64,000 nt of DNA, taken from NCBI GenBank assembly GCA_049599475.1, contig JBMYOQ010000002.1, forward strand, positions 95,795 to 159,794. Reading direction: 5' to 3'. Source of the stretch: Opitutales bacterium. GTDB lineage: Bacteria; Verrucomicrobiota; Verrucomicrobiia; Opitutales; JABSRG01. The number at the start of each line of letters is the position of its first letter. Within the stretch, counting starts at the first letter, position 1. Below, in pieces: positions 3 to 53,602 of the stretch. The position numbers and the translations under genes were made by a program. The notes beneath the pieces were generated by a model. It was given only the letters and a program-made list of their open reading frames with translations, ran no database searches and was not told where the DNA came from.

Positions 3-608
3 TTCCCCGGCGACGGCGGATCTGGTGGTGACGGTGGATCCGGCGGTGGCGATGATGGATCTGGCGACGGCGGTAGCGGAGATACAACAGATACTGATGG
101 TGATGGTGTGATCGATTCTCTGGATGCGTTCCCTCTGTCTCCTTACTTCGGCGAAGGGCCGTATCAAGATTATCTCTTTAATGGAGGCTTTGAAGACCCT
201 CTAGCGGGCGGCTGGAATGTCCCAGGGGGTAATGGCGGGTTTGAGTCTGCGGAATACTATTCCGGGGCTTCTTCCTTTGCGGTAATTAATCCGGACGGCT
301 CCAAGATTGATTTGAATGGACAGAGGGCGTATTTCGTAGCACCGGCTACGGTTGTGAACTTCAGCGGATGGTATAAGGCAAGTATGCCATTTGCGGAAGG
401 TAAGGTGAGCCTGATCACCAAATTGATCGGGACTGAAAGTATCAATAAGACATTTAAATTAAACTACATCGATGGTGAATGGAATTACTTCAGCTTCGAT
501 GTATTGATGCCGACGGGTGAAGCAACACAGCTACGGAAATACAAGCTGAGAACACAAGAATCCGGATTGACAATCTGGTTCGATGATTTGTCTGTCGTCG
601 CCTACTAG
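3..608 (+). CDS. 3' part of a large secreted protein (partial at window start): Gly/Asp/Ser linker, DxDxDG repeat, C-terminal CBM4/9-like beta-sandwich
   Basis: Frame is open from base 3 (FPGDGGSGGDGGSGGG...DTDGDGVIDSLDAFPLSPYF). The segment 'PLSPYF..LFNGGFED...WFDDLSV' matches the CBM-like domain of the two G8 proteins. Stop at 608. Confidence 0.8.
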   Translation, partial: FPGDGGSGGDGGSGGGDDGSGDGGSGDTTDTDGDGVIDSLDAFPLSPYFGEGPYQDYLFNGGFEDPLAGGWNVPGGNGGFESAEYYSGASSFAVINPDGSKIDLNGQRAYFVAPATVVNFSGWYKASMPFAEGKVSLITKLIGTESINKTFKLNYIDGEWNYFSFDVLMPTGEATQLRKYKLRTQESGLTIWFDDLSVVAY

Positions 609-663
609 TTTCACGGCTGCTTGCAGAGTATTGATATAAGAAATACAAGATTGCCATACCAAG

Positions 664-690
664 CCTCCGTGGAAACACGGAGGTTTTTTT
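664..690 (+). terminator. Rho-independent terminator
   Basis: CCTCCGTG-GAAA-CACGGAGG (8-bp perfect stem, GAAA loop) followed by T7, 55 nt after the stop at 608. Confidence 0.85.
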
Positions 691-863
691 GTCCCTTGTG
701 AAAATTAAGGCGTCTGTGGCATGAACCTATTGGTGGGTTAACTTTCTCATGAGAAATGTGTCATATATAACAAGCGAAGTATATGGATGAGCGAAATAGG
801 TAGGATATAAGATTGGGCAAGCGAAGACTTCGCGAAAACTTCTCTACCCCCACTCTCAGTCAT

Positions 864-3800
864 ATGCACCTTGAACGCCCCCCCATCGTTCGTCCCTCAA
901 GCTGTCGTTCGGCATCTCTTGACTTAATCTCTCTCCACTCACTGTTCGCCTGGGTGCTCGCATTTTGCGTGGTCACGCAGGGCTTGAATGCGCAGAACGA
1001 AGTGCTTGGGCATCCGATGGTGCATAGTCTGTTCCCGGATGCGTTAGTTACGAAGCGCACCGTGCAAGGGGGAAATTGGTCGAATCCAGCAGTCTGGGAC
1101 GCCAATACATTGCCGACGGATGGCGATCGCATTGTCATCGAAGAAGGGCATGCCGTCGTAGTCGATTACGAGGTGCCTGAGGAGTTGATGACTCTGCACG
1201 TGAAGGGTGACCTATCGTTTAACAAGGATGTCCATACGCAACTGACAGTGGACACCATGCTGGTCGACTCAATGGGCAGCTTGACCATGGGGAAAGAGGG
1301 CGCTCCCATCAGCAGATCTGTCACCGCAAAGATCGTCATCAAAGACTATAATAATGAGGGGATCATTACGCAGTTAAATGAAGATGGCTCAGCGCCTATC
1401 GATTATGATCCTTATCAGGTCGGTCAGGGGCTGATTGCAAAAGGTCGTGTAGATATGGAGGGCGCGACGCGGGTCCATGGCGGGACCTTGAGCCAAGCTC
1501 CTTCGGCTTTGGATGATCGAATCTACCTCGACTTCAAAGCGAAAGACTGGGAGGTCGGCGACAAGATTGTGATTGCGGGCACGACACGAGACGGGCTGGG
1601 GGACGAAGTGCGTGAAGTCGCGAAGCTAAAGAATAGTAAGCGGACAATCGTTTTAGATAGGCCTTTGGAACTCGATCACCACCTGCCAACGCATTCTAAG
1701 GAAGGGCTAATACTGAAAGTCCATGTGATCAACCTTACGCGTAATGTATGGATTGAGACGGATGCATCAGGCCGAGATCCTTTTCCGGCAGAACCGGTAG
1801 ACGGTGTGATTCAATACAACCGCCGCGGTCATCTGATGTTTATGCACAACTCGGATGTCAGGCTGAAGCTTGCTGGGTTTTATGGCTTGGGTCGGTCGAA
1901 TAAGACAACAAGGGCCAAGGATACCTTTATAGACGAGGCCACTGGAGAAATTACTTTATTAGGGACTAACCCTCGTGGGCGATATGCAGTCCACTTTCAC
2001 ATGGCGGGATTCGATCGGACAATTGAGGTCACCGAATGTGCCGTGGATGGAAGCCCGGGTTGGGGGTTTGTAAACCACAGTAGCCGTGTCGACTTCTATC
2101 GCAACGTTGCCTACAATGCGCGGGGTGCCAGTTTTGTGACTGAAGCCGGGGATGAGCTTGGTTCATTTATTGAAAACATTTCGATTCGCAACGATGCCGA
2201 CGAGGATCAGTCAGGCAACGATCTGCGCTTCCAGAAGCGAAAGTTCAGCAGTGATCGAGCAGACGAAAATGAATTTGGGTTTGGCGGGCACGGGTTCTGG
2301 TATCAGGGCATAAATATCATAGCTAAGAGAAATGTAGCATCGGGCGCTGGGCGCGAAGCTATGTCGATATATCCTCTCCCGTTGCTTGGTCGCGTGTCCG
2401 ACACCATCCCGGTCGAAGAGGTGCGCGAGGAGAGTGCTCATTTACACGCTTCCGATGATGTGAGTATAACAGCTATGCCGGTCCTTAGTTTTGAGGACGA
2501 AATTGTGTATGGTTCGAATATCGCTTTGATGGTAGGGGAGCATCGGCCGGATTTTTACTCGCGCGTTAAAAACTTTGTAGGGTGGTCTGTGCAGATGGGG
2601 CTGAGTACCAACTACTCGGATTTCGTGAGCTACGAAGATATCACACTGATTGGAGATTTGGATGACCCGATGGGCTTGGGCGCGTTTGCACACCATGGAA
2701 CGGGAAATGTGGATTTTATCAATCCGCACATGGAAGGCTTTGCCCTGGGGCTGCAGATGCCGCGAGGCGGAAACAGTGAGTTGGGCTCTGAATTGAGTAA
2801 CCCTGAGGCGGCTCTAAAGCTGAGTTTTATAACGAATGGTTATTTTAATAATCTGATAAATTTGCATTTTCCATTGGTGCGAGCGCATACGCCGGTGAAA
2901 GTGGAAATTACAAACCCGACATTCGGGACGCTCGCTCCCGATGCCGTGTCGCGCGCTATTACGGCCTTGGGAGAAATCGATACGAATAACGACTTAAATA
3001 TCGACTCGAGTAACACGGATTCCAATGGATTTAAGAAGCTTAAAGAACTGGTGGATGGCGGAAGTATTACAAAGCAATATAATTACTTGCTCCATGATAC
3101 TTCTAAACCGGAAAATTCGGGAGGCACCACAGTCCATAAAAAGGATATTTTGAAGCCAGTTATATTTACTGTAGATTATGGCGAAGGTGGTAAGTATCAC
3201 CTGATGATGGAGGATATGCAGAATCCTCAGCATGTCCCGTATCAAGCTGATCTATACATTCCTGACGATTATGTCGAAGGGGATGAAATAGGAAAATGGG
3301 GCATTCCCATCGCTTATCTGGATAAGACGAATCGAGAAATTGCGACCTTGTTCCAGTCTGCAACGGATCCCGATAATCCATACCATAATCTATTTGGTAA
3401 GATGGATCATTATCCGATTGGGGCGCACGGAATCGGTGGCATGATGTTTCCTCCCGATTTTGAGCAAATAGATCGCTTTGAACCTTGGGATGATGGGTTC
3501 AATGTCGTTGCGGTGCGCATCGATGACTTGGAGGATTATAAGCTAGATCTTGTCGACCCCAACCTCCCCGTTTTATTATTTGATTTCGAATACGAAGGAA
3601 ATCGGCTAAAATACCGCCAAGACAAGCCTGCTGCTTGGAATGCCTTTCCGATGGAATACAAGTATGCGGATTTTAATGCATACTCGGGGACTGGAAAAGC
3701 CATGTTCCTCGATGGGAAAGGTGATGCTATTGACTACACGCTTCCCTATCGGCATGCGCATAAAACATTCAGTTGGATAGCCGATCTACGACCGCTTGAG

Positions 3801-5720
3801 ACCACGTCTGGAGTGATCTATGAGTGGTCTGCGGGGGATGCATTCTATCAAATCTCAATGGATGGGGGCGAGCTGCTAGCCAAGGTTCAGACTTCTTCAT
3901 CTGCGCCTGTTAAAGAAATAAGAGGGGGCTCCTTGACTGCGGGTCACTGGCACCAGATTGCCTTCAATTTGGAATATTCTTTGGGCCGCGTTTTCCTCTA
4001 CTTAGATGGTGTTCTAATCGGTTCTAGTGATGTAGATACCATTACTGTAATGGATCGTGGTATTGCCCGAATTGGGCGCGGTATCATCAATGATGATGTT
4101 TCAAACGCGTATCGAGGATTTGTCGACAATCTGCGTGTTCTTGAACGTTCTTTCACTGTTCTTGCACTTGAAGAATATTACAATGAAACCCGCATCCAAA
4201 CACCAGAGGAGTTCGATCCATCTCTTGCCGGTTTAGATGTCACGGATATCGATGTCGATGGCGATGACGTGCGCGATTTAGATGATGTGTTTCCTGCAAA
4301 TGAGGATGAAACGCTTGATAGCGACGGTGATGGCTGGGGGGATGCGTCAGACCCAGAGCCTTTCTTGGCATTCCTCGATTCCGATGGCGATCGTGTTCCT
4401 GACGCTTCAGACCCCTTTCCAAGCGATCCTACAGAGTGGAGTGATATCGATGGTGATTGGACGGGTGATTTTGATGACTCCGATGCCGATGGTGACGGTG
4501 TGCAGGATGTTGATGATGCCCTGCCATTCGACGCTACGGAACAGGTAGACACCGATGGTGATGGCGTCGGCGATAATTCTGATGCCTTCGTTCACGATCC
4601 GATGGAATGGCGCGATACCGACAAAGATGGTTATGGGGATAATATTGACGCGCTTGACCACAACCCTGACGAATGGAAAGACTCGGATAATGATGGCTGG
4701 GGCGATGGACAAGATAATCACATTTATTCCCCCGCGTTCGCATTAGAAGAGAATATTTTGCCCAACCCAGGCGCCGAGGATGGAGCTACCGATTGGAAAT
4801 TCTCTAACACCGGATCAAGCGCAACCATAAATCTAGATTTCAAGCGCTCGGGAAATGCCTCATTTATCCTAAATAATGTGGGGGATGGGACCGCGAGAAT
4901 GGAATCTACCGGATTGGAAGTCTCTAACCCGGCGGGACTTAAACGTGTTACCGCGAGTGGTTGGGTGCGATTGAATAAGATTGTCAAAAACAAAGAGGAT
5001 AAAGTCCGCATCGGTATCGATTTCATTGGTGGACGGGTCGAAGAGCGCATCATTCTTGTCGAAAATCGAGAATGGACAAACTTCTCGTTCGATTACTTTA
5101 GCGACGATTGGACCGGCATTGACCGATTTTTCATCTCAAATGATCTGGACAATCTTGTTGTTCATATCGACGACTTGAAGGTGAGCGTAAACAATGTTGA
5201 ATCAGACATAGATTCCGATGGTATCGATGACTATGCCGACAATGACGACGACGGAGATGGCTATTTGGACGGTGAAGATTGGTTCCCGAACAGTGCCTCG
5301 GAATGGGCGGACACGGACAATGACGGCACCGGAAATAATGAAGATACTGATGATGATGGTGATGACCTGCTGGATACCGAAGAAATCGCTGCAGGGCTCG
5401 ATCCGCTCGATGCGTTGGATGCCGATTTGGATTATGACCAAGATGGGCAGACAAATCGTCTAGAAGTTCGCGCAGGCACAGATATCTTCGACTCCATGTC
5501 ACGTTTCATTCTGTCGACAGTGAATGTCTTAGAAAATGGTGATGTCAGGCTCGAATGGGCGGGCGGAGATACGCAAAGCTTCTATATCGAATACTCCAAT
5601 GATCTGATGAACTGGTACGTGTTACCGGATTCGGTAGGTGTAACCGTGAGCGAAGGGTATACCGACATCAGTGTGGGAGGCGCAGCGGCTCGCTACTACC
5701 GTGTGGTGTTGAACGATTGA
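864..5720 (+). CDS. Large secreted G8-domain / parallel beta-helix protein with LamG-like domain, TSP3-like DxDxDG repeats, CBM-like domain and C-terminal tag module
   Basis: ORF 813-5720 (TTG); ATG 864 preferred. Signal peptide, G8 start 'GGNWSNPAVW..LPTDGDRIVI', 'GRYAVHFH', beta-helix-type repeats, LamG 'WHQIAF..LYLDG..FVDNLRV', DxDGDG repeats, ends RYYRVVLND. Confidence 0.85.
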   Translation: MHLERPPIVRPSSCRSASLDLISLHSLFAWVLAFCVVTQGLNAQNEVLGHPMVHSLFPDALVTKRTVQGGNWSNPAVWDANTLPTDGDRIVIEEGHAVVVDYEVPEELMTLHVKGDLSFNKDVHTQLTVDTMLVDSMGSLTMGKEGAPISRSVTAKIVIKDYNNEGIITQLNEDGSAPIDYDPYQVGQGLIAKGRVDMEGATRVHGGTLSQAPSALDDRIYLDFKAKDWEVGDKIVIAGTTRDGLGDEVREVAKLKNSKRTIVLDRPLELDHHLPTHSKEGLILKVHVINLTRNVWIETDASGRDPFPAEPVDGVIQYNRRGHLMFMHNSDVRLKLAGFYGLGRSNKTTRAKDTFIDEATGEITLLGTNPRGRYAVHFHMAGFDRTIEVTECAVDGSPGWGFVNHSSRVDFYRNVAYNARGASFVTEAGDELGSFIENISIRNDADEDQSGNDLRFQKRKFSSDRADENEFGFGGHGFWYQGINIIAKRNVASGAGREAMSIYPLPLLGRVSDTIPVEEVREESAHLHASDDVSITAMPVLSFEDEIVYGSNIALMVGEHRPDFYSRVKNFVGWSVQMGLSTNYSDFVSYEDITLIGDLDDPMGLGAFAHHGTGNVDFINPHMEGFALGLQMPRGGNSELGSELSNPEAALKLSFITNGYFNNLINLHFPLVRAHTPVKVEITNPTFGTLAPDAVSRAITALGEIDTNNDLNIDSSNTDSNGFKKLKELVDGGSITKQYNYLLHDTSKPENSGGTTVHKKDILKPVIFTVDYGEGGKYHLMMEDMQNPQHVPYQADLYIPDDYVEGDEIGKWGIPIAYLDKTNREIATLFQSATDPDNPYHNLFGKMDHYPIGAHGIGGMMFPPDFEQIDRFEPWDDGFNVVAVRIDDLEDYKLDLVDPNLPVLLFDFEYEGNRLKYRQDKPAAWNAFPMEYKYADFNAYSGTGKAMFLDGKGDAIDYTLPYRHAHKTFSWIADLRPLETTSGVIYEWSAGDAFYQISMDGGELLAKVQTSSSAPVKEIRGGSLTAGHWHQIAFNLEYSLGRVFLYLDGVLIGSSDVDTITVMDRGIARIGRGIINDDVSNAYRGFVDNLRVLERSFTVLALEEYYNETRIQTPEEFDPSLAGLDVTDIDVDGDDVRDLDDVFPANEDETLDSDGDGWGDASDPEPFLAFLDSDGDRVPDASDPFPSDPTEWSDIDGDWTGDFDDSDADGDGVQDVDDALPFDATEQVDTDGDGVGDNSDAFVHDPMEWRDTDKDGYGDNIDALDHNPDEWKDSDNDGWGDGQDNHIYSPAFALEENILPNPGAEDGATDWKFSNTGSSATINLDFKRSGNASFILNNVGDGTARMESTGLEVSNPAGLKRVTASGWVRLNKIVKNKEDKVRIGIDFIGGRVEERIILVENREWTNFSFDYFSDDWTGIDRFFISNDLDNLVVHIDDLKVSVNNVESDIDSDGIDDYADNDDDGDGYLDGEDWFPNSASEWADTDNDGTGNNEDTDDDGDDLLDTEEIAAGLDPLDALDADLDYDQDGQTNRLEVRAGTDIFDSMSRFILSTVNVLENGDVRLEWAGGDTQSFYIEYSNDLMNWYVLPDSVGVTVSEGYTDISVGGAAARYYRVVLND
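4250..4720 (+). repeat. Coding tandem TSP3-like Ca2+-binding repeats (DxDGDGxxDxxDxFPxDxxE)
   Basis: About 7-8 repeats visible in the translation of the 864-5720 ORF; equivalent array at ~19560-20040. Confidence 0.75.
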
Positions 5721-7578: not shown

Positions 7579-7607
7579 TATGGTCGGTTAAGGCGCTTAA
7601 AACGTAA

Positions 7608-9662
7608 TTATTCGTCGACTACTATGCGTAGGAATTGATTGGGCTGCGAGTCGAAGTTGATATCTGAGCGTAGTTGAATATTTTCGGTGCCATCTCCATT
7701 GGCTGTGGCAGGCGCTATTTGAGTCGTTTGCGCTGGAGACCAGGTCGCAAGGTTCGAAGAGGTCTCTATGTTGTAGAAAAAAGTATCCTCTGCATCGGTA
7801 CGATAGCTATATTGAATACTCGGAGCGTGTGCGTCGACTCCTGGAATAATCCCGAGGTTCTCATCGGGCGTATTCGGATCCAGGCCGAAATAATATTCGA
7901 GCTCATTACTCAGCTGGTCTTGATCCAGGTCATCTTTGCGCGGTTCATCTTCGATCCCGTAAGTGGAAGACCACGCTTCGTAAGGAGTCAAGGGGCGCGT
8001 CGCCAGAATGGCGACTTCTGCCGCGGAGAGGCTGCGGCCATAGATGCGGTAGTCGTCAATCTTTCCTCGATAGGAATTGGCGCCGCTTAACGAAGAGCCG
8101 ATAGTCCATGTGTTGATGCCGGACATACTGTGAGTGGCTCCGTTTTGCGTCTCCACGAGGGTTCCGTTTTTATACAACTTACTCTCTCCCGTGCTTGTGT
8201 TTGAGGTAAATGCCCAGTGCGTCCATTTATAAACGTCGGATGCGTTAGCGTGGTATAGAGTAGTGTTTCCGCTATCCCCACCCGCGGTGAATATGACTTG
8301 GTCATCGTTTTGTGGCAGAGTGATCTTAGTTACAGTCTGACCTCCGCTAGTTTCAGCTTCAGTGATTACAAAATCAGCGATTGCGCGCGTAATATCGCCA
8401 TAGCTCCAGAAGGTCACTGTAAGCTCTTGATCAACACTGGTCAGTGCAGCGCTGGGCACAGTGAGGCTTCCTGTGATTGTAGGGCCTCCGAAGTCCAAGG
8501 CCCCACCCATATATCCTTTGGACCACGATCCTCCTGTTAGGGTTGCATCCATCGCGTTTCCAGAGGCATCGGTGATGTTGGTTCCGGAATTTTCGTTGAA
8601 TTTATACCATACAAGTAAATCGCTAATAGATGGTTCTACTCGAATGGATACAGTGGATTTATATCCGTCGGTCTGGCCGTTGTTTGCTGTGAAGGTAAAG
8701 CTATCGTAGCCGGTAAACCCACTGGCTGGTTGGTAGGTAAATGAACCGTCCGCGTTTAAGGTGAATTGGGCTGCGTTACTTGGTCCCTTGACGAGAACTG
8801 CGCTCAGGGGTAGGCCGTTTTTGTCGAAGGCTGTGGAGAGCACGCCGGGTGCGGCTACCTGGGTCGATTCAGGATACTGAATGGCTACATATTGCTGGTC
8901 GAAGGTTGCGGGTTTGTTGTCATTTATCAGCTGGATAGCTTTCCGCGCAAAACGTTCTCCTAGCAAGGTGTAGTTGTTGTCGGGGCCTTCGTTGTAGTGC
9001 ACGCGATTTTCTAACTCCCCGTTGTTGATGACGTTATTTAAATCGTCGGTATTTACCCACTCGAAATAGTGGGAGTGCTCAGCCATGCTGGACTGAATTT
9101 TACGCACCTCGTCGACATAAAGATAGGTGTCCAGTTTTACGCCGATGTCGGTAATCCGACCAATCACAATATTGATGTGATCGATTCCCATATCGTTTTT
9201 CAGCTGGCCAACGAGAGTGTGGAATGCGTGGTCGTAGAACACATATTTCTCATTACGTGTATTCGCTTCGCCCTGCATCCATATGAAAGTCACCTCCGGG
9301 TCGTTGAGACTATTGTAGCCTTGAGTAGCGTCTTTCTGCAGCCAACCGCCATAAAGCGAATCTAGGCCCCCTGGCGCATCCATACTTTCGTAGGGCCAGG
9401 TCTCCAGCCAGTTAAAGATCGATTGACCGTTTTTTCCCCGGAGTTTGAAAACCTTATTCTGTCCGGGAAAGGCTTCCTGGATCATCGGTTTGAAGACAGA
9501 GTCATAGGCGCCGCTCTTGTCGAATCGAGCCATGTTGGATTGACCGGAGAGAAGGAAGAGGTGTTCGGCTTGTAAGTTACTACAGATGGGTGTGCTTATG
9601 AGTAAGCACGGCCAAAATGTACGCATACATCGAGCCATTCGGTAAAGTGCTGATTGGTGCAT
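7608..9662 (-). CDS. SGNH/SASA-type carbohydrate acetylesterase fused to Ig-like and LamG domains with C-terminal tag module
   Basis: 'LLSGQSNM', 'WMQGEAN', 'RVHY'; Big_9/VCBS-like 'LNADGSFTYQPASGFTGYDSFTF'; LamG 'LVWYKFNE..IDDYRIY'; ends QFLRIVVDE. Confidence 0.8.
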   Translation of the reverse strand: MHQSALYRMARCMRTFWPCLLISTPICSNLQAEHLFLLSGQSNMARFDKSGAYDSVFKPMIQEAFPGQNKVFKLRGKNGQSIFNWLETWPYESMDAPGGLDSLYGGWLQKDATQGYNSLNDPEVTFIWMQGEANTRNEKYVFYDHAFHTLVGQLKNDMGIDHINIVIGRITDIGVKLDTYLYVDEVRKIQSSMAEHSHYFEWVNTDDLNNVINNGELENRVHYNEGPDNNYTLLGERFARKAIQLINDNKPATFDQQYVAIQYPESTQVAAPGVLSTAFDKNGLPLSAVLVKGPSNAAQFTLNADGSFTYQPASGFTGYDSFTFTANNGQTDGYKSTVSIRVEPSISDLLVWYKFNENSGTNITDASGNAMDATLTGGSWSKGYMGGALDFGGPTITGSLTVPSAALTSVDQELTVTFWSYGDITRAIADFVITEAETSGGQTVTKITLPQNDDQVIFTAGGDSGNTTLYHANASDVYKWTHWAFTSNTSTGESKLYKNGTLVETQNGATHSMSGINTWTIGSSLSGANSYRGKIDDYRIYGRSLSAAEVAILATRPLTPYEAWSSTYGIEDEPRKDDLDQDQLSNELEYYFGLDPNTPDENLGIIPGVDAHAPSIQYSYRTDAEDTFFYNIETSSNLATWSPAQTTQIAPATANGDGTENIQLRSDINFDSQPNQFLRIVVDE

Positions 9663-9892: not shown

Positions 9893-11698
9893 ATGAAAAA
9901 TATCCCCTGTACCCGCGTGGATGTAATTCGCGCGTACGTGTTGACTGCTCTGCGTCTGCTGGCATTGGTTTGCCTCGTCTCTCGGGCTCTATACTCTGTC
10001 GACCTATATCCCACTCTTGAGGTGACCCGTCTCGGAGGTGGGGAGGCGCCGATTATCGATAAGCAGAGTTTTATCGATGCGGGGTTGCCGGAAGGAGGTG
10101 ACAATATTAATGGACCGACCTGTATTCGAGTTCCTGACTGGGTTGCTGTCGAAGACCGCGCACACCCGACTGCTCAGTATTATTTGTATTTCGCGAGCCA
10201 TGCTGGGAATGCCTATTTTATACCGATGGCTTGGGCTGCGAAGATAGAGGGCCCATGGACCTTGTTTAATGCGGGCATTAATGATGACCCGCGGGTGGCG
10301 GGGACGGGGGTTCTCGATATGGGTGATTCTAAGCTACAAGCAAATGGTAAGCCCCAATTTTATCCACATGGTGGAGCTGAAGCTCGGTTTAAGAGCAATA
10401 TAGCTTCACCGGATATCGTGATCGATCACGTGAATCAGCAGTTCATTTTATTTTTTCATAGCCCGACTGAAAAAAATAAGGGGTCAAAGCACGGGTTTAC
10501 AACGGGTGGGCAGAAGACAGGTGTGGCTACGTCTGCTACCGGGCTGAATTTTAATATGCCCAATGAGCACGTAGTGCAATTTGGAGATGGAAATGATCCC
10601 GATAATCCGGAACACGTACAGATGGGGCTTGAGGTGACGGGCGGTGTGGGTGGCGGAGAGCCCGGGCACGGCGTAAAGAACGCGCAGCTCGGAAATGCGT
10701 ATTTTAGAGTATTCCAATACAATGGGGAGATGTATGCATTTTCCAATTACGGAAGATTGTGGAAATCACCAAGTGCTTCAGAGCCTTGGTTGACAAGCAA
10801 TCCGCGCAAAGACGCTTGGGATGAGGCGATAGCTGCCGAAAATGCGACGACCAGCGAGGCGGCGGGTGATCCTCGCTTAGGGAATCCCATCTACAAGGAC
10901 CTTACGGAAGCCTATATGGAACGGAATCCGTGGGTCACTGGGGTGAGTTCTGGAAATGTCGATCCTAGGCGCAATTTTGCGGGTAGGACGGGTTTTGAAG
11001 GTTACGACGCAGAGGGTAACCCGATTCCCAAGTTCAATGGAAACCACGGAGCTCCACGCCACTTTGCGACTCTCCTGCAGGAAGATGGGCATACGCTTGA
11101 GGTCTGGTATACCAGTCGGGGTGATGCGCCCGAACGTATTTTCCGAACGACCATGGATCTCAGCCAAGGTGATTGGGAATCATGGCAGACCGTTGTCTCT
11201 GATGACGATTATATCCACGACATGATGTTGACTCCCGAGCGAGATTGGGAAGGCGCTGACTTGCCCGTAACTGGAGGTTCTAACGGGCAATCGGGAGAGG
11301 CCCATGCATTTAGAGATCCACAGTTGTTCAGGGATGATGATGGGCAAGTGTATCTTTTTTACACGGCGCGTGGTGAGACAAATATCGGTGTCGCTCGCGT
11401 TCATCCGAGAGATACGGATGGGGACGGGTCTAGTGACGATGATGAGAGCGTCTCGGGTACCGATTTGAATGATCCGCAGTCGATCTTTAGAATCAGTGAA
11501 GTCATTGATGGTGGTTCTTATGTGACTGTCCGTTGGCCGAGTGTCAGTGGGCGTATGTATGCTCTAGAGACCTCTAATGACGTGAGACAATGGAGCGAGG
11601 TCGCATCTGGAATCGCTGCGCAACCTCCGTATAACGAATATCAACTACCCAAGAGCTCTGTGAATATCTATTACCGTGTGTTGGTGACTTTTCCCTAG
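9893..11698 (+). CDS. Secreted putative beta-propeller glycoside-hydrolase-like protein (family A, copy 1) with C-terminal tag module
   Basis: 'NINGP..RVPDW..YYLYFA..MAWA..IEGP', 'IASPD', 'GNAYFRVF', 'GDAPERI', 'RDPQLF..VYLFY..GE..IGVARV'; ends IYYRVLVTFP. Confidence 0.75.
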   Translation: MKNIPCTRVDVIRAYVLTALRLLALVCLVSRALYSVDLYPTLEVTRLGGGEAPIIDKQSFIDAGLPEGGDNINGPTCIRVPDWVAVEDRAHPTAQYYLYFASHAGNAYFIPMAWAAKIEGPWTLFNAGINDDPRVAGTGVLDMGDSKLQANGKPQFYPHGGAEARFKSNIASPDIVIDHVNQQFILFFHSPTEKNKGSKHGFTTGGQKTGVATSATGLNFNMPNEHVVQFGDGNDPDNPEHVQMGLEVTGGVGGGEPGHGVKNAQLGNAYFRVFQYNGEMYAFSNYGRLWKSPSASEPWLTSNPRKDAWDEAIAAENATTSEAAGDPRLGNPIYKDLTEAYMERNPWVTGVSSGNVDPRRNFAGRTGFEGYDAEGNPIPKFNGNHGAPRHFATLLQEDGHTLEVWYTSRGDAPERIFRTTMDLSQGDWESWQTVVSDDDYIHDMMLTPERDWEGADLPVTGGSNGQSGEAHAFRDPQLFRDDDGQVYLFYTARGETNIGVARVHPRDTDGDGSSDDDESVSGTDLNDPQSIFRISEVIDGGSYVTVRWPSVSGRMYALETSNDVRQWSEVASGIAAQPPYNEYQLPKSSVNIYYRVLVTFP

Positions 11699-12097: not shown

Positions 12098-13872
12098 ATG
12101 AAAATTAATAGACGAAACATGTCTCAAGCCCTAGTTCTGTGTGTCCTGGGGATATCTGTATCTCTGTTGGCTGGCGACCTTTTGGGGCAGAGGCCAGGGC
12201 CGGATCCTGTGACGCTTGTTACCCCGCAGGCATTAAACAAGACGCTGAGCGTAACACGTCTGAATGGGAACCAACCGATTATCCACGGGCAGATGTTTTT
12301 GGATATCGATCCGACCCTGACGCATGAAGCGGGGAATATTAATGGGCCGAGTCTCGTGCGTTTACCCGACTGGCTGCCTGTTGAACAAAGAGCTGATCCG
12401 AGCGCACAATACTATCTCTATTTTGCAAGCCACTCGGACGTATATATCCGAATGGCTTGGGCGGCGGATATTGAGGGCCCCTATACGCTCTACAATACAC
12501 ATGCGGATCCCTTGCTCGACGATGGTATGCCGGGACGTGGAGTATTGGATTTGATCGATAAGGATGAGCGGATTACCTTTGGTGTCCCAAAATATGCAGT
12601 AGGGGGACTGTGGCGTCTCCGGATGTGCATATTGATCATGAGAATCAACAGTTTCTCATGTATGTCCACATGGGTTCCACAAAGTCGACTGGTTACGATA
12701 GTGGATATTTCAATACAGGAGGGCAAAAGAGTATGATCGCTACATCGGCATCGGGTCTAAATTTCAACCAGCCCGATGACGGCAGTGGAGGCGGAGGCGT
12801 CATGGGTGGTGAATCCGGGCATGGCTTGCGCCCCGCGTATTTGGGGAATGCGTATTTTAAAGTCTTTGAGGTCGAGTCGGGATCGAATGCGGGCCTGTAT
12901 GCATTTTCGAATTATGGCCCGGTTTGGAAGGGGCCTGCATCGGGTATTCCGTGGGACACGAGTAATGTCGTCATCGATCGCAAAGTTTATGATTCCTGGA
13001 CAGAAGGTCCGAAGATAGAAAGCCCGGTGTATCAGGATTTGAGAGATCACTATATACAGGACCTCTTAGATGCTGCGGATCTCGCAGGGGTTACCGATTT
13101 TACGAATTTCGGATATAGCGAAATGGTGGCGGCGCGCGGAGAGCCCCGTGTGAGAACGCGGACGGGTAACCTAAATTGGGATGCCAATAATGAGGTGTGG
13201 AAGGAGCAAGATGGAGGTTCCCCGAGGCACTTTGGAGTATTGATGCAGGAAGACGGCAAGACGCTTGAAGTGTGGTATACGTCCCGAGGGGATAGCCCAG
13301 AGCGCGTTTTCCGGACGACGATCGATACGAGCCAAAATACCTGGGATACTTGGGATGCGGTCGTCACCGATGCCGACACTGTTCACGATGAAATGCTGCG
13401 TGCTGTCTATGATTGGGAGGGTGGAGATCTGAGCCCTACCACAGGGTCTAATGGTCAATCTAATGGGCTCGCCAATGCGATCCGCGATCCCGACCTTTTT
13501 CAGGACGAAGATGGCAAAGTATATTTGCTCTATGTGGGAGGCGGGGAGAGCGCTATCGGGATCGCTCGTGTATTTCCCACAGATTCCGATAAAGACGGCT
13601 CTTCAGATGACGACGAAGCTGTAGCGGGCACCGACCCACATGATTCAGAAGACACATTGAAAATTTCAAATTTAAGCATCTCAAATGGCGTCGCGACCCT
13701 CGACTGGCCCAGTGTGGTCGACCGCACCTACGGCATCGAGCAATCCACGGATATGCAGGTATGGACACCCGTTACTTCGGATATCTCGGCCCAGCCGCCA
13801 ATGAACTCACAGAATGTTCCTGTGGCAGATGCTGGGCTCTTTTTCCGCCTGTCGGTAGAGCATACACCGTAA
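12098..13872 (+). pseudogene. Family A beta-propeller protein (copy 2) with C-terminal tag, split by a 1-nt frameshift in G5 at 12602-12606 (pseudogene or sequencing error)
   Basis: ORF 12074-12736 carries the N-terminal family motifs; ORF 12610-13872 carries 'ASPD...' to GLFFRLSVEHTP. Adding one G gives ..VGGTVASPD, collinear with paralog 'NNIASPD'. Confidence 0.85.
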
Positions 13873-13906: not shown

Positions 13907-15241
13907 ATGCTAAATTTCAAAATCTCGAAAAAACTCCTGAAATCTGCGCTCTTCATGGGGGTGGTTTTTTCGAGTATCGCGGCGAAGGCCGCAACGACGA
14001 TGTCGCCAAACTTGAGCGTCATGCGCCTCAATAATGGCGAGCCGATCATTACCAAGGATATGTTCTTGGCTATAGATCCAGGCTTGGAATACCAGGGGAA
14101 GAATATAAACGGGCCCTGCATGGTCCGCATCCCGGATTGGGTCGCGTCAAAGGACCGTGCGCACCCTTCAGCGATTTACTACCTATACTTTGCGCACCAT
14201 GGAGATGGCTTTATCCGCATGGCGTGGGCGCAGAATATTGAAGGCCCATACACCTTATATAATACACATACCAATGAAAAAGACCTGCAAAATGGCGACA
14301 CACAAAACGGCCGTGGAGTCCTGGATTTGGGGACCAAGCTGCAGAAATCAGGGAAGCCTGAAATGGTATTCAAGGGTCGGTTTAAAATTAAGAATAATAT
14401 CGCGTCACCGGATGTCATATTGGACCATAAAAACAAGCAATTCATCATGTTCTTTCATGGGCACGCCGCGAAGCCCACGTATGACTCAAGTGTAGCCAAT
14501 ACTGGTAAGCAGAAGAGTTTTGTCGCGACTTCACGAACGGGTCTAAATTTTAATATGCCTGATGATAACCCTGCAAATGCGGGAGGCGTGAACGGTGGTG
14601 AATCAGGACATGGAATACGTGTGGCCCATTTGGGAAATGCCTACTTCAGGACTTTTCAATATGATGGGGAACTGTATGCATTTTCAAATTACGGACCCGT
14701 TTGGAAGGCTCCTAGTTTGGAAAAGCCCTGGGACACTTCGCATATCAAAAATATCAATGATGATGTGTGGACTGAGATGGCCGATAAGAAAGAAAACCCT
14801 ATCGCACGTGCCGTAAAGCCCTACAAAATGAAGCACCGGGAGAGTCCCATTGCAGGGTTCAATAGAGGTGGGTTTCAAAGTGCGCGACATTTTGCTACCT
14901 TATTGCAAGGGGATAATAAGACACTCGAAGTCTGGTACACGGCGCGTGGAGATAGACCTGAACGGATTTTCCGGACAACAATAGATCTTAGCCAAAATGA
15001 TTGGAATTCTTGGGAAACCTCTATTCATGATCTAAAGGACATTCACCAAGAGATGCTCCGGCCTGAACTCGAATGGGAAGGCGCAAACCAACCCCTAGCC
15101 GCAGGAAAGAACGGTCAAACAGGTTTTATGAATGCTATGCGTGATCCTGACTTATTTCGAGATGCCGATGGGCAAGTTTACCTCTTTTACGTGGGTGGGG
15201 GAGAAAGCGCTATCGGTATCGCTCGAGTGAACGGGTTCTGA
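13907..15241 (+). CDS. Family A beta-propeller protein (copy 3), no C-terminal tag
   Basis: Signal peptide; same motifs as 9893; ends right after IGIARV (NGF*). Confidence 0.8.
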   Translation: MLNFKISKKLLKSALFMGVVFSSIAAKAATTMSPNLSVMRLNNGEPIITKDMFLAIDPGLEYQGKNINGPCMVRIPDWVASKDRAHPSAIYYLYFAHHGDGFIRMAWAQNIEGPYTLYNTHTNEKDLQNGDTQNGRGVLDLGTKLQKSGKPEMVFKGRFKIKNNIASPDVILDHKNKQFIMFFHGHAAKPTYDSSVANTGKQKSFVATSRTGLNFNMPDDNPANAGGVNGGESGHGIRVAHLGNAYFRTFQYDGELYAFSNYGPVWKAPSLEKPWDTSHIKNINDDVWTEMADKKENPIARAVKPYKMKHRESPIAGFNRGGFQSARHFATLLQGDNKTLEVWYTARGDRPERIFRTTIDLSQNDWNSWETSIHDLKDIHQEMLRPELEWEGANQPLAAGKNGQTGFMNAMRDPDLFRDADGQVYLFYVGGGESAIGIARVNGF

Positions 15242-23205: not shown

Positions 23206-23301
23206 GGTGCCGTTTAGGCAATTTCGCTCGATTACGGGTGTGCCGAAATGGGCCTTTATTAGGTTTCTCAAAAGTAATTTTGTAAACTCGAGTTTAAAAT
23301 G

Positions 23302-23378
23302 GTTGTAGCCGCGGTACTCTGCTGCCCGCACTCGAGTCTGCTTATGTGCTGGCCCCAGCAGAGGCGGGCGGCAACAAC
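23302..23378. repeat. REPIN-like inverted pair of GTAG-type REP units
   Basis: gttgtagccgcggtactctgctgcc ... gccccagcagaggcgggcggcaacaac; near-identical arms at 35828-35910; between convergent genes. Confidence 0.7.
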
Positions 23379-23531
23379 AAGTATCAGGATGAATAGGCGA
23401 GAACACTTTTGAGAAAGGGTCTAGAGGTAGTGACATTCTAAGGATACTCGGTCAACCGTGAGCCGGTATGACTGATGAAATTGCTTGAGAAACCTCGTGC
23501 TGCGGGTCTTGCGCCCGATTCAATGGGGGTT

Positions 23532-26636: not shown

Positions 26637-27301
26637 AGGAGTGGGGGGAGGTGTTGAGTGTGGCAAATTCTGTATAGAATTACCTCATTTGAAGAGCACT
26701 TATGAGGTGATTTTGAGAATTTGAACTAGATGTATTCAGGAGAGTGCTGATACCTGATTATTATAGGGTCGGATCTGGTATCCAATGGGAGATTCCTGAA
26801 GCATCATTTGATTTGAAAAACATATAAAAAAATTGGATACTTGCAAGGTTCAAAACCAAAATGGATAGAGTTTGTGGGTATATTATAAATACAAAAAAAT
26901 GTATTTTAAGATATTGTGCGCTATGGCTAAAATTATTGAATTAAATTCACTCAAAACAACATCTCTGTTTGTCGATCGAGTGCGGCAGATAAGGATCTCA
27001 GCAGTAACATCAAGGTAAACGATTACAGGTATAATTAGACAAGGAACGGCTCCCGGGTGGCATTGATTCAGTCTTGGAGACTTCGTCTAACATTTTGATA
27101 TTTGCTCTAATACCGAATCCCGAAAATATTGATTTAATCAAGATTTTCGAGATTCGGTATTAGGTAGGCGGTTCCTTGACTGATCGAACGAAGATCTCGG
27201 TTTCTGTGCTGCTACGAAATTATTCTTCGGCCTATTCCGATCCAAATGAGCTGCGCATCGGAGTTATTTGAGAAGGGATATGGGTGCTGGTTTTGCGTTT
27301 T

Positions 27302-31602: not shown

Positions 31603-31711
31603 CCTCTTCCGCAAAGTCTCCTACACAGTACAGCTCCCCCTGAGTCCCTTACCCCGCAAGCCGTTCCTTGAGAGGGCTTTATTATCTTTTATCCCTTGAT
31701 TACACCTATCT

Positions 31712-34982: not shown

Positions 34983-35732
34983 ATGCTTATGATACGCAAA
35001 AGAACCTACCTCCTATGCTGGCTACTTGCTGGCATGATTCAAATAAATGCTGAGCCGCTCAAAGTCTTTGTGCTGGCGGGACAGAGCAACATGGTCGGAA
35101 AGCGTGGAGATGCGCTCGCATTACCTCAGGAAATGAAGGGAGTTCAGCAAAATTTGTTTTTCAAAAAGTCAGCATGGGTCCCCTTGGCACCCGGAGTGTC
35201 GGAGAAAAGGGGATTTGGCCCAGAGATTTCCTTTGCCTATGCAATGGGGGAGTATTTAGGAGAGCCTGTCGGTATTATCAAGCATAGCAGCGGCGGGACG
35301 AGCTTGGCGAAGCGTTGGGATCCTTCTGCTGAAAAATCGCTTTACCAGATGCTTCTGAATAAGGTGAAGGATGCTCAAAAGAGCCGAGATATTGAAATTC
35401 TTGGGATGCTTTGGATGCAGGGTGAAGCTGATTCTAAGAATCAGCAAGACGCAGAGGCTTATGCTGAAAATTTCAAAAATTTTATTTACACCGCCCGAGA
35501 AGATTTTGGCAGTCCGGAAATGATCTTTATCGCGGGACGTGTAAATCCAACTGCCGAAAAATATCCCTTCGTAGATATCGTGCGCGCGGCCCAGGAAAAT
35601 TGCGCGGTAGATAATTATTCATTTATCGACTGCGACGGCTTAAGCAAGGTAAGCGACCAGGTTCATTACGATCCAGTCGGGCTCGTCGAAATGGGAAAAC
35701 TGTTTGCCCGCGCCATGAAGGGGCACTTGTAG
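34983..35732 (+). CDS. Sialate O-acetylesterase-like (SASA/SGNH) carbohydrate acetylesterase, untagged
   Basis: 'VFVLAGQSNM', 'FGPEISF', 'GGTSL', 'WMQGEAD', 'DQVHY'. Confidence 0.9.
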   Translation: MLMIRKRTYLLCWLLAGMIQINAEPLKVFVLAGQSNMVGKRGDALALPQEMKGVQQNLFFKKSAWVPLAPGVSEKRGFGPEISFAYAMGEYLGEPVGIIKHSSGGTSLAKRWDPSAEKSLYQMLLNKVKDAQKSRDIEILGMLWMQGEADSKNQQDAEAYAENFKNFIYTAREDFGSPEMIFIAGRVNPTAEKYPFVDIVRAAQENCAVDNYSFIDCDGLSKVSDQVHYDPVGLVEMGKLFARAMKGHL

Positions 35733-50109: not shown

Positions 50110-50469
50110 CGTTTTAAAAGGAGATACTATCGTATATTGAATAAACTAAATTCCGATGCTGAAGTTTTAGTAGGCGTTTTTGAATTTTATCAGCCTGCTT
50201 GTGTAAACGTGCACTTAGAGCCGGCAGTTAGGCGTATTTAAGAATATCCACCTTCGTAAGGGTGGTAGGTCCGCCGGGATTGTAGTGCTGATTCTCACTC
50301 AAATTAATAGTTCTGGTAGCAACTGTGTCGGGTGAACCGTCTCGGTGAGCAGTTGAGTATAAGTCCAATCCCATTATGGGCTCGCTTAAACGCCAATGCC
50401 CTGCGGGAGTGCAGGGCATGGTGTCTCGGGATCGATTATTGAGAAGAGGCGCTCAGGCCTCTGTTGATT

Positions 50470-52008
50470 CTATAAGGTCGCGGAGAATGCGACGGGCACA
50501 TCATTTTCTAGTTTTGGGCCTGGTGTGCTGCGTCCGTTTTCGATGAATTCCATTAAGGTGTCATAGAGGCGCTTTTCGACCTCTGGAAACTGTGTATATA
50601 GATTGGTCGTCTCCTGTGGGTCCTTGATCATATTGTAGAGCTGAAATTTGGGTAAACCTTGCTTGGCTGCGTCTTTATCTTTGGGTTTGGACCAGCCCCC
50701 GGATCCCGCTGTGAAGATCAATTTCCACTCGGGTGTGCGGATGGCGAATTGACCGCTAATAGAATGATTTACAATCGCGCGGGTTGCTGCAGTTTCCTCG
50801 GTTTTGCCAATGAGGGTCGGGAGAAAGCTTACACTGTCTTCAGCTCCATCTGCTGGGAGGTCTGTGGCGATGATATCCGCTGCGGTGGCTACGATGTCTC
50901 CCAGGACAGTGAGGCGATCGGTCTGAGTGCCTGCTTTGATCGCGGCGGGCCAGCGGACAATGTGCGGCACACGGTGACCGCCCTCCCAGATGTCTGCCTT
51001 CGCGCCCCGGTAGATGTAGTTGGGAAAGTGTCCCTGAGCGATTAGCGCGTCAATATCTGCTGCGGGTGAGCAACCGTTGTCTGCCGTGAAGAGAATGAGA
51101 GTATTTTCGGTAATGCCAGCTGCGTCGAGGGCGCTTAGGATTTGGCCGACACCCGCGTCTGTTTGCATGACAAAGTCTCCGTAGTCGCCGAGCCCGCTCT
51201 TACCCTTCCATTCAGAAGTGGGAATGATGGGTGTGTGTGGGCTGGTTAGCGGTATGTATAGGAAAAAGGGAGTGTCTTTATCGGCTTTGAGGATGTATTC
51301 CGCGGAGCGATCGTAAAACTCGTCGAGTGTTTCAAATGGGTCGAAATTATCGGCGATCCATCCAGGGCGGAATCCTTTGGTGATGCCCAGTTCTGATTTC
51401 ATGAGCTTCTTATCGACGTATCGCAAATTCTGTGACTGGTAGCGGTCATTTTCGATGTAGTTGTAGGGAGGGAAATCGAGGGAGGCATTGTGGCCCCAGA
51501 AGTAGTCGAATCCGTTACAAGTGGGTGTGCCGGTCAGTGGTTGATCCCAGTTGATGACCAGGTTTTTTAGGTTCTTTTTGTAGCTTGCGGGTGGTTCGGC
51601 GAAGGGATGATTCATGCCTAGGTGCCACTTGCCAATCATTGCGGTATTGTAACCATTTTCCTGTAACAGATTAGCGATGGTCAAACGGTCGGCTTCGATC
51701 AAAGGTGGCTCATATCCATTTACGACACCGCGTTGGAGCTTTGTGCGCCAGTTGTAACGGCCGGTCATGACATTGTAACGAGTTGGCGTACACACCGAGG
51801 AGCTTGAATGGGCATCTGTAAACACCATTCCTTCTGCGGCCATGTGGTCCAGGTGCGGAGTCTGGATTTTGGACTCAGGGTTTAGGGCGCTGACGTCGCC
51901 ATAACCCATGTCGTCGGCTATGATATAAATGATATTGGGACGCTCTTGTTTAGCGCTTGAAAGCGATAGGCAGAGCGCGAATGCGGAGAGTAGGAGAGGG
52001 TTTCTCAT
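50470..52008 (-). CDS. Arylsulfatase-like S1 sulfatase
   Basis: 'PNIIYIIADDMGYGD', 'FTDAHS..VCTPTRY', GKWHLG, 'EGGHRVP'. Confidence 0.95.
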   Translation of the reverse strand: MRNPLLLSAFALCLSLSSAKQERPNIIYIIADDMGYGDVSALNPESKIQTPHLDHMAAEGMVFTDAHSSSSVCTPTRYNVMTGRYNWRTKLQRGVVNGYEPPLIEADRLTIANLLQENGYNTAMIGKWHLGMNHPFAEPPASYKKNLKNLVINWDQPLTGTPTCNGFDYFWGHNASLDFPPYNYIENDRYQSQNLRYVDKKLMKSELGITKGFRPGWIADNFDPFETLDEFYDRSAEYILKADKDTPFFLYIPLTSPHTPIIPTSEWKGKSGLGDYGDFVMQTDAGVGQILSALDAAGITENTLILFTADNGCSPAADIDALIAQGHFPNYIYRGAKADIWEGGHRVPHIVRWPAAIKAGTQTDRLTVLGDIVATAADIIATDLPADGAEDSVSFLPTLIGKTEETAATRAIVNHSISGQFAIRTPEWKLIFTAGSGGWSKPKDKDAAKQGLPKFQLYNMIKDPQETTNLYTQFPEVEKRLYDTLMEFIENGRSTPGPKLENDVPVAFSATL

Positions 52009-52027
52009 GGACGGGGGGATCTGGAGA

Positions 52028-53602
52028 TTATTCGAAGTTTACAGTTATCGAATCGATGATTGGTTTTGAGTTGTTAGAAGTGTTGTCTTGGATACGGATT
52101 TCGAACTTGAAGCCGTACCCTTCTGGCAGGTCGGAAAGGTTTAATTGAGCGGGATTACGCTTTATCTGTTTGGAGAATCCGGGGATGGCTTCGTATGTCT
52201 CTTTCACGGGAGCCCAGTCTGTCCACCGATTTATATTTTTGTCTCCGTTTGTATCGACTCCAACGCGGGCTTCTACGCTTTCCACCCAAGGGCCGGGGCT
52301 TACGAAGTCGTCTTGCTGCTGAGTCGCTAAATAAAATTGATTCTCTGCAAAAATAATATCGGGGTCGGGGTGGCCTTTTCCGACAGAATGCACCAGCTCG
52401 AATGGGCCGTTTACGCTATCTGCGGTTAGGATCGCGACGGACATATTTTTAGTCGGCTCTCCTGCGGGGTGAAAGTCACCAAAAAGATAATACTGTCCAC
52501 CAATACTAATCGCAGCCCAATCACCGTATGCGTTCTGCGCGGGTTCGTGTTTCTCGTAGCTTGCGTGGCTTCCCCCTTTCCAGATGGAGCTGCTGCCCCA
52601 GTGCGGGTGCCTGAATTCGCCGAATTCACCGGTTGGTTGTGTACGATGATCAACTGCTGGTTCACGAATTGTAAAGGGGGTAAGTCCTCCATCAGGGCTC
52701 ACGGCGCGTCCGGCTAGCGGAGAGTCCCATGCGTGCGCGCTCGCATTGATCGGACTCCAGTCTTCGTAGATCAGGTGGAATTCACCCTCGAGATCGCGGA
52801 TTACAACGCAGTCGGATCCATGAGAGGGGTCGGCCCAAACCATACCGAGGTTTTCCCCGGGTTCCCCATCGGTGAGGTCGGAATCGATGTAGAGGTGTGG
52901 GTCTTGGTCGTTCGGGTTATCGTAGTAGATGTAAGTCTTTCCGTCGGCATACTCTGCGGTGGTGACCCATCGTCCCTCTCGGTCAGTGATGGGGCCGTGG
53001 TGTACCCAGTTTACCATGTCGCGGCTTTGCCAAGCGTGATATCCGCCGAGGCCGGGTTTTAGTCCACCGGGCGCGTTGTAAGTGTTGGGAATTTGAGTCG
53101 TGCGCAGCGGTATATCAAAACCTTCAAGATTTGCCTCTTGGCCGTTGAAGGGTTTATTTGCTTCAGCTTCGAGCTTGGCGGCTGCTTCTGGATCGCTCTT
53201 GCGTAATTGTTTGAGGCGCTTGGGATTGGCGCCGTTCGCGGGGTTGAAACGACCAAAAATCCAATAGTTCCCGGGCCCTTGAGACAGCAGCACGGGTGCG
53301 TCGCCAAGATTTTTTGGGCCAATGTTCGGTGTCTTGTTCCAGTTGTCCCAGCTTGTACTTTGGGCTACGGTGAGGCTACGTGCTTGTAGCTTGTTTTTTG
53401 CGTCGAAATATTGGCTACTCAGCGTAGCGGATTCACCTGCCGGAACGATTTGTCCATTCGTTATTTCGGCACCTTGGATATCGGCGATATTGTTTTTCCA
53501 TTCTATCTCACTCGAAAGATGCCATGTATTATTCGATCGCAGTGTTTGAGATGTCGTAATGCTTATGCTGGCGAGCAGCAGTGCGGAGCTTATGTGATTC
53601 AT
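52028..53602 (-). CDS. Secreted family C propeller-like protein, untagged paralog of 21160-23205
   Basis: Shared motifs 'DAPVLLS', 'TTAEY', 'DPSHGSD', 'HAWDSPLAG', 'AYGDW', 'GHPDP', 'VSPGPW'; ends at KPIIDSITVNFE*. Confidence 0.8.
   Translation of the reverse strand: MNHISSALLLASISITTSQTLRSNNTWHLSSEIEWKNNIADIQGAEITNGQIVPAGESATLSSQYFDAKNKLQARSLTVAQSTSWDNWNKTPNIGPKNLGDAPVLLSQGPGNYWIFGRFNPANGANPKRLKQLRKSDPEAAAKLEAEANKPFNGQEANLEGFDIPLRTTQIPNTYNAPGGLKPGLGGYHAWQSRDMVNWVHHGPITDREGRWVTTAEYADGKTYIYYDNPNDQDPHLYIDSDLTDGEPGENLGMVWADPSHGSDCVVIRDLEGEFHLIYEDWSPINASAHAWDSPLAGRAVSPDGGLTPFTIREPAVDHRTQPTGEFGEFRHPHWGSSSIWKGGSHASYEKHEPAQNAYGDWAAISIGGQYYLFGDFHPAGEPTKNMSVAILTADSVNGPFELVHSVGKGHPDPDIIFAENQFYLATQQQDDFVSPGPWVESVEARVGVDTNGDKNINRWTDWAPVKETYEAIPGFSKQIKRNPAQLNLSDLPEGYGFKFEIRIQDNTSNNSKPIIDSITVNFE

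Follow-up and report, generated by a model that had tools for sequence, protein, structure and literature searches.

A recurrent C-terminal tail accompanies lysine-poor enzyme copies at a sulfatase-rich locus of an Opitutales bacterium and may mark cell-surface proteins

The 64,000-nucleotide stretch analysed here (the window) corresponds to C2:95795-159794 in the 4.68-Mb genome of an Opitutales bacterium (G000; 146 contigs, 96.6% complete). Its DNA was present in two sequencing runs, both marine metagenomes, and no RNA datasets were listed among the runs carrying it. The window encodes nine sulfatases, glycoside hydrolases (GHs) of families GH95 and GH109, PhoD-like proteins, SASA esterases and two giant G8/CEMIP beta-helix proteins. 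Because of this combination of sulfatases, GH95, GH109 and esterases, the likely substrate is a sulfated, probably fucose-containing polysaccharide. The Pfam scan of 34 open reading frames (ORFs) of the window detected neither SusC nor SusD, as an earlier model-made description of the sequence (the first-pass annotation) had stated. Eight ORFs are closed by one homologous fibronectin type III (Fn3)-like domain of about 90 residues, here called the tail, and four enzyme families occur in both tailed and untailed (plain) form. The first-pass annotation had explained such duplicates as a two-compartment degradation system, with acidic tailed enzymes in seawater outside the cell and basic, lysine-rich plain enzymes in the periplasm.

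Genes are named below by their first coordinate. Family A, putative five-bladed-propeller glycoside hydrolases with the fold taken from the model of a paralog, comprises an intact tailed member (9893..11698, + strand, tail 11447-11695), a tailed member frameshifted at a run of five G (12098..13872, +, tail 13618-13866) and two plain members, at 13907..15241 (+; signal-peptide-like N-terminus, core lysine about 6%, net charge about 0) and at 28924..30438 (+; core lysine 4-5%). Family B, an orphan family with a GH43/GH130-like propeller in the predicted structure, has a plain member at 30466..31602 (+) and a tailed one at 31712..33307 (+, tail 33050-33304). Family C is GH43-like; its tailed member at 21160..23205 (+, tail 22933-23202) carries an N-terminal Ig-like domain and an in-frame TAG, and its plain member at 52028..53602 (- strand) is acidic and belongs to a widespread stand-alone family. 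Among the SASA esterases, a tailed protein with Big_9 and LamG domains (7608..9662, -, tail 7611-7895) is accompanied by a plain stand-alone enzyme (34983..35732, +) and by the C-terminal end (3..608, +) of a 787-aa esterase with Big_9, LamG and carbohydrate-binding module (CBM)-like domains, which is acidic, lysine-poor and without a tail. Tails are further found on a 1044-aa exported protein without a Pfam family (23532..26666, -, tail 23535-23801) and on both G8/CEMIP beta-helix proteins, one with LamG, acidic calcium-binding-type repeats and a CBM-like domain (813..5720, +, tail 5466-5717) and a second at 15589..21072 (+, tail 20824-21069). The latter two belong to five paralogs of 1600-1960 aa in this genome (the others at C2:89055, C48:3926 and C56:12271), possibly polysaccharide depolymerases, of which three are tailed and two stop just before the tail.

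An acidic loop of the DxDxDG type opens the tail; a short helix and GxDP come next, followed by YxIExSxDLxxW, and F-x-R lies in the last strand. An AlphaFold2 model (predicted local distance difference test score, pLDDT, 93.6) places the acidic loop and helix ahead of a shortened Fn3-like sandwich, with best fold matches to a cellulosomal Fn3 domain (Z 8.3) and to 3mpc (Z 8.1; root-mean-square deviation 2.6, 74 aligned). These scores lie within the range of common arrangements, the top 50 matches being Fn3-type domains with Z 6-8. The Fn3 domain of pectate lyase PelI, which is linked to type II secretion, scored 7.7 against the model. No Pfam or NCBIfam family covered the tail when 48 tails were compared with Pfam (E ≤ 1) and 19 window proteins with NCBIfam (E ≤ 0.1); the strongest Pfam signal was DUF3999 (9 of 48 tails, E 6e-4 or weaker), PF00041 matched none of the 48, and no PDB sequence matched the tail profile below E 0.1. 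NF042425 was rejected as a tail-related candidate, as it matches mostly via the acidic loop. Neighbours of the tail in the ESM Atlas carried no names and came mostly from Verrucomicrobiota.

An iterated profile search identified the tail at the C-terminus of 58 proteins of this genome. Of 121 genomes sampled from the phylum, 59 contain it, with an uneven distribution over families, and 19,600 cluster representatives match its profile at E ≤ 0.001. Among the 150 best of these library matches, 143 were re-detected, and in 126 of the 143 the last tail copy ends at most 15 residues from the end of the protein. No tailed protein was found in two 20-kb stretches of genome G078. In six untailed acidic proteins inspected, no tail remnant followed the stop codon; one inspected protein of this kind (on C6) ends inside the loop-helix half of the tail.

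Tailed and plain copies in the window were compared over aligned cores, with the tails excluded. As first described, the plain family A proteins 13907 and 28924 end three residues past IGIARV, the point at which 9893 and ORF 12610 pass into the tail linker; the assignment of 30466 as plain and 31712 as tailed was likewise confirmed, and the peptides quoted for this pair were exact. Family A tailed cores have a net charge of -4.0 to -6.7 per 100 residues and 2.6-3.3% lysine, compared with -1.5 to +0.2 and 4.2-6.4% in plain cores; the lysine shift reached p < 0.05 in two of four comparisons, which share members (p = 0.035 and 0.0015; the others 0.064 and 0.26). In family B the tailed core has a net charge of -7.2 and 2.8% lysine and the plain one -2.5 and 6.6%, with 18 lysines gained and 4 lost in the plain copy (p = 0.004). 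The predicted lower isoelectric point (pI) of tailed cores was thus found in families A and B. The plain copies are richer in lysine in these two families, as had been claimed, but instead of being basic they are close to neutral in A and acidic in B (core pI 5.7); the whole-protein pI of 52028 is 5.0, and the only basic exception is whole-protein 13907. The main difference is therefore a loss of lysine from the tailed core (about 3% versus 4-7%), next to plain copies that are neutral or acidic, and within the window this pattern holds in two of the four families. Signal-peptide-like N-termini were recognised by eye on both forms.

The depletion of lysine in tailed proteins extends to the whole genome, for which 3465 ORFs from our own gene calls were classified with a crude hydrophobicity test for signal peptides. 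Tailed cores (n = 55) have a median of 2.3% lysine, 14.3% aspartate plus glutamate (D+E) and a net charge of -8.0, and untailed proteins with a signal-like N-terminus (n = 831) have 4.7%, 14.0% and -3.7. The median lysine content is 5.2% in proteins without a signal (n = 1291) and 0.5% in the PEP-CTERM-like proteins of the genome (n = 24). Since the lysine content of plain copies lies within the range of the genome (medians 4.7-5.2%), it is the tailed copies that are unusual. In sulfatases, the cores of four tailed proteins contain 2.7% lysine and those of 88 short plain ones 5.4% (p = 0.001), whereas D+E (13.3 versus 13.2%) and GC content at third codon positions (GC3; 0.57 versus 0.56) are equal; a fifth tailed sulfatase, on C30, was left out of this comparison and has 3.7% core lysine versus 4.9% in its partner. 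A GC or codon bias behind the lysine gap was rejected, GC3 being equal in the sulfatase cores and without consistent direction in the window pairs. The rule is one-way: tailed proteins are lysine-poor, but large untailed lysine-poor proteins exist as well, for which a different exit from the cell or a past loss of the tail is probable.

Homologs in other genomes allowed us to follow the end of family A proteins. Of 8000 candidates scored, 4577 were family A homologs, and among the 120 best of these, PEP-CTERM-like, dockerin-like or F5/8 ends also stand where the tail does. Median core lysine is 2.3% in tailed (n = 8), 1.0% in PEP-CTERM-like (n = 6), 1.6% in dockerin-like (n = 28) and 2.7% in plain homologs (n = 50), and the median net charges are -7.2, -6.2, -6.4 and -3.1; the ends were labelled by our own patterns, the sequences are kin rather than independent, untailed cores shorter than 300 aa were left out, and plain homologs vary widely (0.3-7.5% lysine). 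P0003 and P0054, the same genes as window copies, were dropped as well. A quick tree of 46 sequences included only the 45 best hits. In this tree the tail is found at four separate places, and the tailed 12098 is the sister of the plain P0021 (Shimodaira-Hasegawa-like approximate likelihood ratio test 99), to which it is 74% identical. Relative to 12098, P0021 has gained 16 lysines and lost none, with a core pI of 8.9 versus 4.5. The family A model is a five-bladed propeller (pLDDT 90.3) with Z 24.6 to GH130 and 23.7 to GH43, and family B is propeller-like by its Atlas model (template modelling score 0.60-0.65). Family B shares short motifs with family A. In the Pfam comparison with PF04616, 52028 scored 33.7 bits against a cut-off of 32.2, with no stretch passing alone, 9893 scored 19.2, and the other members gave no match.

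Two tailed genes of the window are broken, which the first-pass annotation had missed: 12098 is frameshifted at the G run (12602-12606), and 21160 contains the in-frame TAG at 21703-21705. Because of this stop, family C has no intact tailed copy here. A third broken tailed gene lies at G000:C80:13823-17994, so that the three together comprise two frameshifts and one stop; the plain paralogs of the two broken window genes are intact. An assembly error behind both breaks is disfavoured, as the same letters appear in contigs from a second study, where one contig bridges the frameshift of 12098 and another reaches only 11 bases to the left of the TAG in 21160; run X1, a possible source of the window, was not counted. 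The G run could be a slippage site, or the breaks could reflect the loss of costly surface enzymes. A screen for split genes returned 15 candidates and missed both window breaks, and thus yields no usable pseudogene baseline.

A published precedent for surface and internal twins exists in Akkermansia muciniphila. According to the accessible text of PMC13524802 (Nat Microbiol 2026; bioRxiv 10.1101/2025.09.11.675649), transposon mutants link extracellular 3S-Gal sulfatase activity to Amuc0953 and intracellular activity to Amuc0451, two S1_20 sulfatases with identical binding sites. Amuc0953 is described there as cell-bound, with activity outside the cell and not in the medium; its last domain was likened, from an AlphaFold3 (AF3) model, to a T9SS (type IX secretion system) C-terminal domain (CTD), and the mechanism moving it outside was called unknown. 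In genome G087, protein L041:1277-5557 (1426 aa) aligns over residues 38-1297 with PDB 9S8X (2465 bits), which the accessible text gives as a deposition of that study; its identification as Amuc0953 fits the domain order and a cloning primer encoding its first residues. At its C-terminus, L041:1277-5557 is matched by the tail profile with an hhalign probability of 97.9 (E 3.6e-13) and a hidden Markov model E-value of 4e-11, and on these alignments we regard the window tail as homologous to the final domain of this Amuc0953 ortholog. The paralogs L046 and L047, which resemble 9S8A, are untailed. Between the tailed and plain members of this gut-type pair in G087, core lysine is 4.1 versus 7.1%, D+E 71 versus 76 and pI 6.2 versus 9.0, and in a second genome (G063) core lysine is 3.8 versus 7.2%. 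Seawater acidity is therefore not needed for the lysine shift, as the gut-type pair shows it without more D+E. Other tailed proteins of G087, including a sialidase-like protein and a GH18, have 1.6-3.3% lysine and 8-12% D+E (five measured). Two of the six tailed genes of G087 lie directly downstream of PEP-CTERM genes (L041:419-1129 and L090:5116-5922). Amuc_0953, Amuc_2164, Amuc_0451 and Amuc_1074 are not named in the supplement of PMC4960237.

From these results we favour, with a probability of about 0.6, the reading that the tail sends its carrier to the cell surface or ties it there, and that the plain copy stays in the periplasm. Both forms would cross the inner membrane by Sec, as their N-termini suggest. 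A partner would then recognise the tail, with its conserved W and F-x-R, and carry the protein through the outer membrane or hold it there; the position and spread of the tail and the Akkermansia precedent point to such a step. Judging by gene content, tailed copies would trim the sulfated polysaccharide at the surface, and plain copies, together with the many plain sulfatases, would finish the oligomers inside. The correlation of core composition with tail state would arise if residence outside selects against lysine, and the lysine loss of tailed cores likely follows from such exposure. We infer a surface location of tailed and a periplasmic location of plain enzymes with shared chemistry in this organism. 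The two-compartment part of the first-pass annotation is thus probable, with one published precedent and indirect support from the tail of the Amuc0953 ortholog and from the exchange with PEP-CTERM and dockerin ends, whereas seawater acidity was not supported as the main cause.

Several observations weigh against this reading. Among the five tailed proteins that belong to window pairs, two carry breaks. The lysine-rich plain copy that had been claimed is not found in family C (tailed net charge -9.2 and 3.8% lysine, plain -6.6 and 4.0%; 15 lysines gained and 14 lost), and the supposed SASA pair of 7608 and 34983 is only 32% identical and shows no significant lysine shift either (core pI 5.44 versus 5.33). 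The 787-aa protein ending at 3-608 lacks a tail, as noted before, yet among the paralogs of 7608 it is the nearest (48% identical), and it is more acidic than the latter (net -6.9 versus -4.2); untailed G8 and SASA paralogs match their tailed counterparts in acidity. Among the 24 best tailed/untailed pairs of the genome, the untailed partner is more positive in 16 and richer in lysine in 18. With a split at 700 aa that was chosen after the table was seen, lysine and net charge both shift in 12 of 12 pairs with partners up to this size (10 distinct partners; median +2.3 percentage points lysine and -1.3 points D+E in the plain copy, D+E being lower in 11 of 12), but large partners show no shift (4 of 12 for net charge, 6 of 12 for lysine). 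In family A, the plain P0004, next to 12098 and P0021 in the tree, barely differs from 12098 (nine lysines gained, five lost). Family A occurs in 12 of 151 related genomes and is multicopy only in G000, so that keeping twins is not general for the window families. The sequence of 9S8X stops before the tail, and the presence of the tail on Amuc0953 thus relies on the ortholog and on the final CTD described in the accessible text of PMC13524802. Lastly, the tail domain is internal in seven further proteins of the genome (near the N-terminus in two), and 101 of the 143 library matches contain more than one copy; such internal and repeated copies are unexpected for a strictly terminal signal.

These internal and repeated copies would suit an ordinary accessory module, such as an Fn3-like spacer, a calcium-stabilised cap or a glycan or surface binder, with export decided otherwise and low lysine marking all exoproteins. 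The generic Fn3-like fold and the equally acidic, lysine-poor large untailed paralogs agree with this, and the full type II secretion cluster of G000 could export folded proteins without a tail. We nevertheless consider it unlikely, as terminal copies outnumber internal ones in this genome by 58 to 7 and sit on unrelated proteins, in family A it stands where other homologs have PEP-CTERM-like or dockerin-like ends, and a type II secretin query found no match in 11 of 11 genomes of genus g21, five of which are tailed. The duplicates might instead differ in substrate specificity, or result from module shuffling and decay, rather than perform the same chemistry in two compartments. Core identities between pair members are only 49-58% (A), 52% (B), 50% (C) and 32% (SASA), none of the 120 best homologs of the widespread family C is tailed, and family B is restricted to its two window members (30466-33307) in 5.8 billion clusters, at the lengths that the search covered; the three broken tailed genes fit decay. 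This explanation appears improbable to us, since the motifs invariant in family A (SPD, H, RH, PER and RDP) are kept in all four window copies and it leaves unexplained the directional lysine shift in families A and B, the sulfatases and the gut-type pair; the published Amuc pair, moreover, has identical binding-site residues (PMC13524802, accessible text).

The seawater version of the first-pass annotation, which puts the acidity of tailed enzymes down to adaptation to seawater and takes plain ones to be basic for the periplasm, draws on the lower pI of tailed cores in families A and B, on the lower D+E of plain partners in the small-partner pairs and on the acid shift of marine extracellular proteins reported in the accessible text of PMC11928666. 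That text also states that the periplasm is not osmoregulated and sees salt as well. D+E is equal in the genome-class and sulfatase comparisons, the gut-type pair shifts lysine without more D+E, the six tailed proteins of G087 combine 1.6-4% lysine with only 8-12% D+E (five measured), and plain copies other than whole-protein 13907 are not basic. We regard this version as very improbable.

As to the machinery behind a surface-directing tail, G000 has, besides the type II secretion cluster, two PilMNOPQ-like clusters. Neither secretin tracks the tail closely enough to be assigned to it: the type II secretin query, without a match in the 11 genomes of genus g21, matches seven of seven genomes of family f4, of which five are untailed, and an Amuc_1098-like PilQ is too general, since 58 of the 59 genomes with the tail have it and so do 45 of the 62 without. 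The accessible parts of PMC13174399, PMC4960237 and PMC12204202 provide background on MUL2/PilQ; the tail does not feature in them. We tentatively propose, as a possibility short of an even chance, that the tail is the address label of a new Verrucomicrobiota system for outer-membrane export and surface attachment, which would be unrelated to T9SS and independent of the canonical type II secretin, and that its gain or loss relocates, between surface and periplasm, an enzyme whose lysine content is then rewritten quickly. The quick rewriting is suggested by the 16-to-0 difference in lysines between sisters that are 74% identical.

The principle of surface and periplasmic twins is already known, having been published for one pair; new here are the recognition of the tail as a family that spans the phylum and connects to the Amuc0953 experiment, and the lysine depletion that tracks the tail. 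In the literature covered, from which subscription journals were largely missing and which included the supplements of PMC13524802 in part, we found neither the tail described as a family nor a lysine shift between such paralogs. The question addressed is how Verrucomicrobiota get large enzyme sets outside the cell. With a tail profile covering 58 proteins here and half of the sampled phylum, the remark made for Akkermansia becomes a testable class, for which a host amenable to genetics and a suitable enzyme pair are already at hand. The lysine shift offers an independent read-out of location, and gains or losses of the tail are natural experiments. If the proposal is true, tail and lysine content together map which members of an enzyme set numbering hundreds make the first attack on sulfated algal glycans and on mucin.

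Some further features were observed. A second type of C-terminal ending, with many W and Y, recurs on several lysine-poor exported proteins (G000 C75, C76, C85, C14, C24 and C8:68624) and may be another sorting or binding module. Poly-lysine C-terminal ends are present on untailed exported proteins, namely that at 6061-7578 (-) of the window and about ten other sulfatase-like proteins; at least seven K or R in the last 15 residues were found in 28 of 2679 proteins, none of them tailed, possibly as a periplasmic retention feature. An intergenic repeat of about 160 bp (window ~23255-23416) has six more copies on other contigs (74-84% identity) and resembles miniature inverted-repeat transposable elements or repetitive extragenic palindromes, and a short palindromic intergenic repeat (~27100-27165) has matches on about a dozen contigs. 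A Verru_Chthon cassette A-like protein with a weak TIGR02600 match (55139-59625, -) stands beside a small neighbour and has a split paralog on C78.

Among known systems, the T9SS CTD (TIGR04183, PF18962) resembles the tail in being a small beta-sandwich that ends many Sec-exported enzymes unrelated to one another, but the window tail has Fn3-type best folds, a preceding acidic loop-helix and internal and repeated copies. Por_Secre_tail, TIGR04183 and TIGR04131 gave no match in the 19 window proteins (NCBIfam), the 48 tails (Pfam) or the genome, the 50 best fold matches included no T9SS CTD structure, and SprA and PorP had no match in G000, control genomes being silent too. PEP-CTERM and dockerin anchors occupy the same position in family A homologs with equally lysine-poor cores; in contrast, the alignment and model of the window tail do not show the PEP motif, transmembrane helix and basic cluster of PEP-CTERM ends, and it has no dockerin match in Pfam. 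We know of no sortase-like or cohesin-like partner for the tail. The family A model resembles five-bladed propeller GHs (GH43, GH130, GH117, GH32 and kin; Z 22-25), but the window families are only 8-15% identical to solved members and cannot be assigned to a family. For marine proteins, the accessible text of Ayu (PMC11928666) describes a gradient of K, R, D and E from the cytoplasm to the exterior, with fewer K and R and a lower pI in extracellular than in periplasmic proteins; the direction of the lysine shift is expected from this gradient, and what is added here is its lysine-led form between paralogs of one genome, seen also in a gut lineage. The Amuc0953/Amuc0451 pair resembles the window pairs in combining a larger surface copy that has a final CTD with a smaller intracellular copy that has none. 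It is a single gut sulfatase pair, and its CTD appears in the accessible text as one sentence based on the AF3 model, not described as a family. What differs here is the lysine shift, which that text does not mention, together with 58 tailed proteins and three uncharacterised propeller families.

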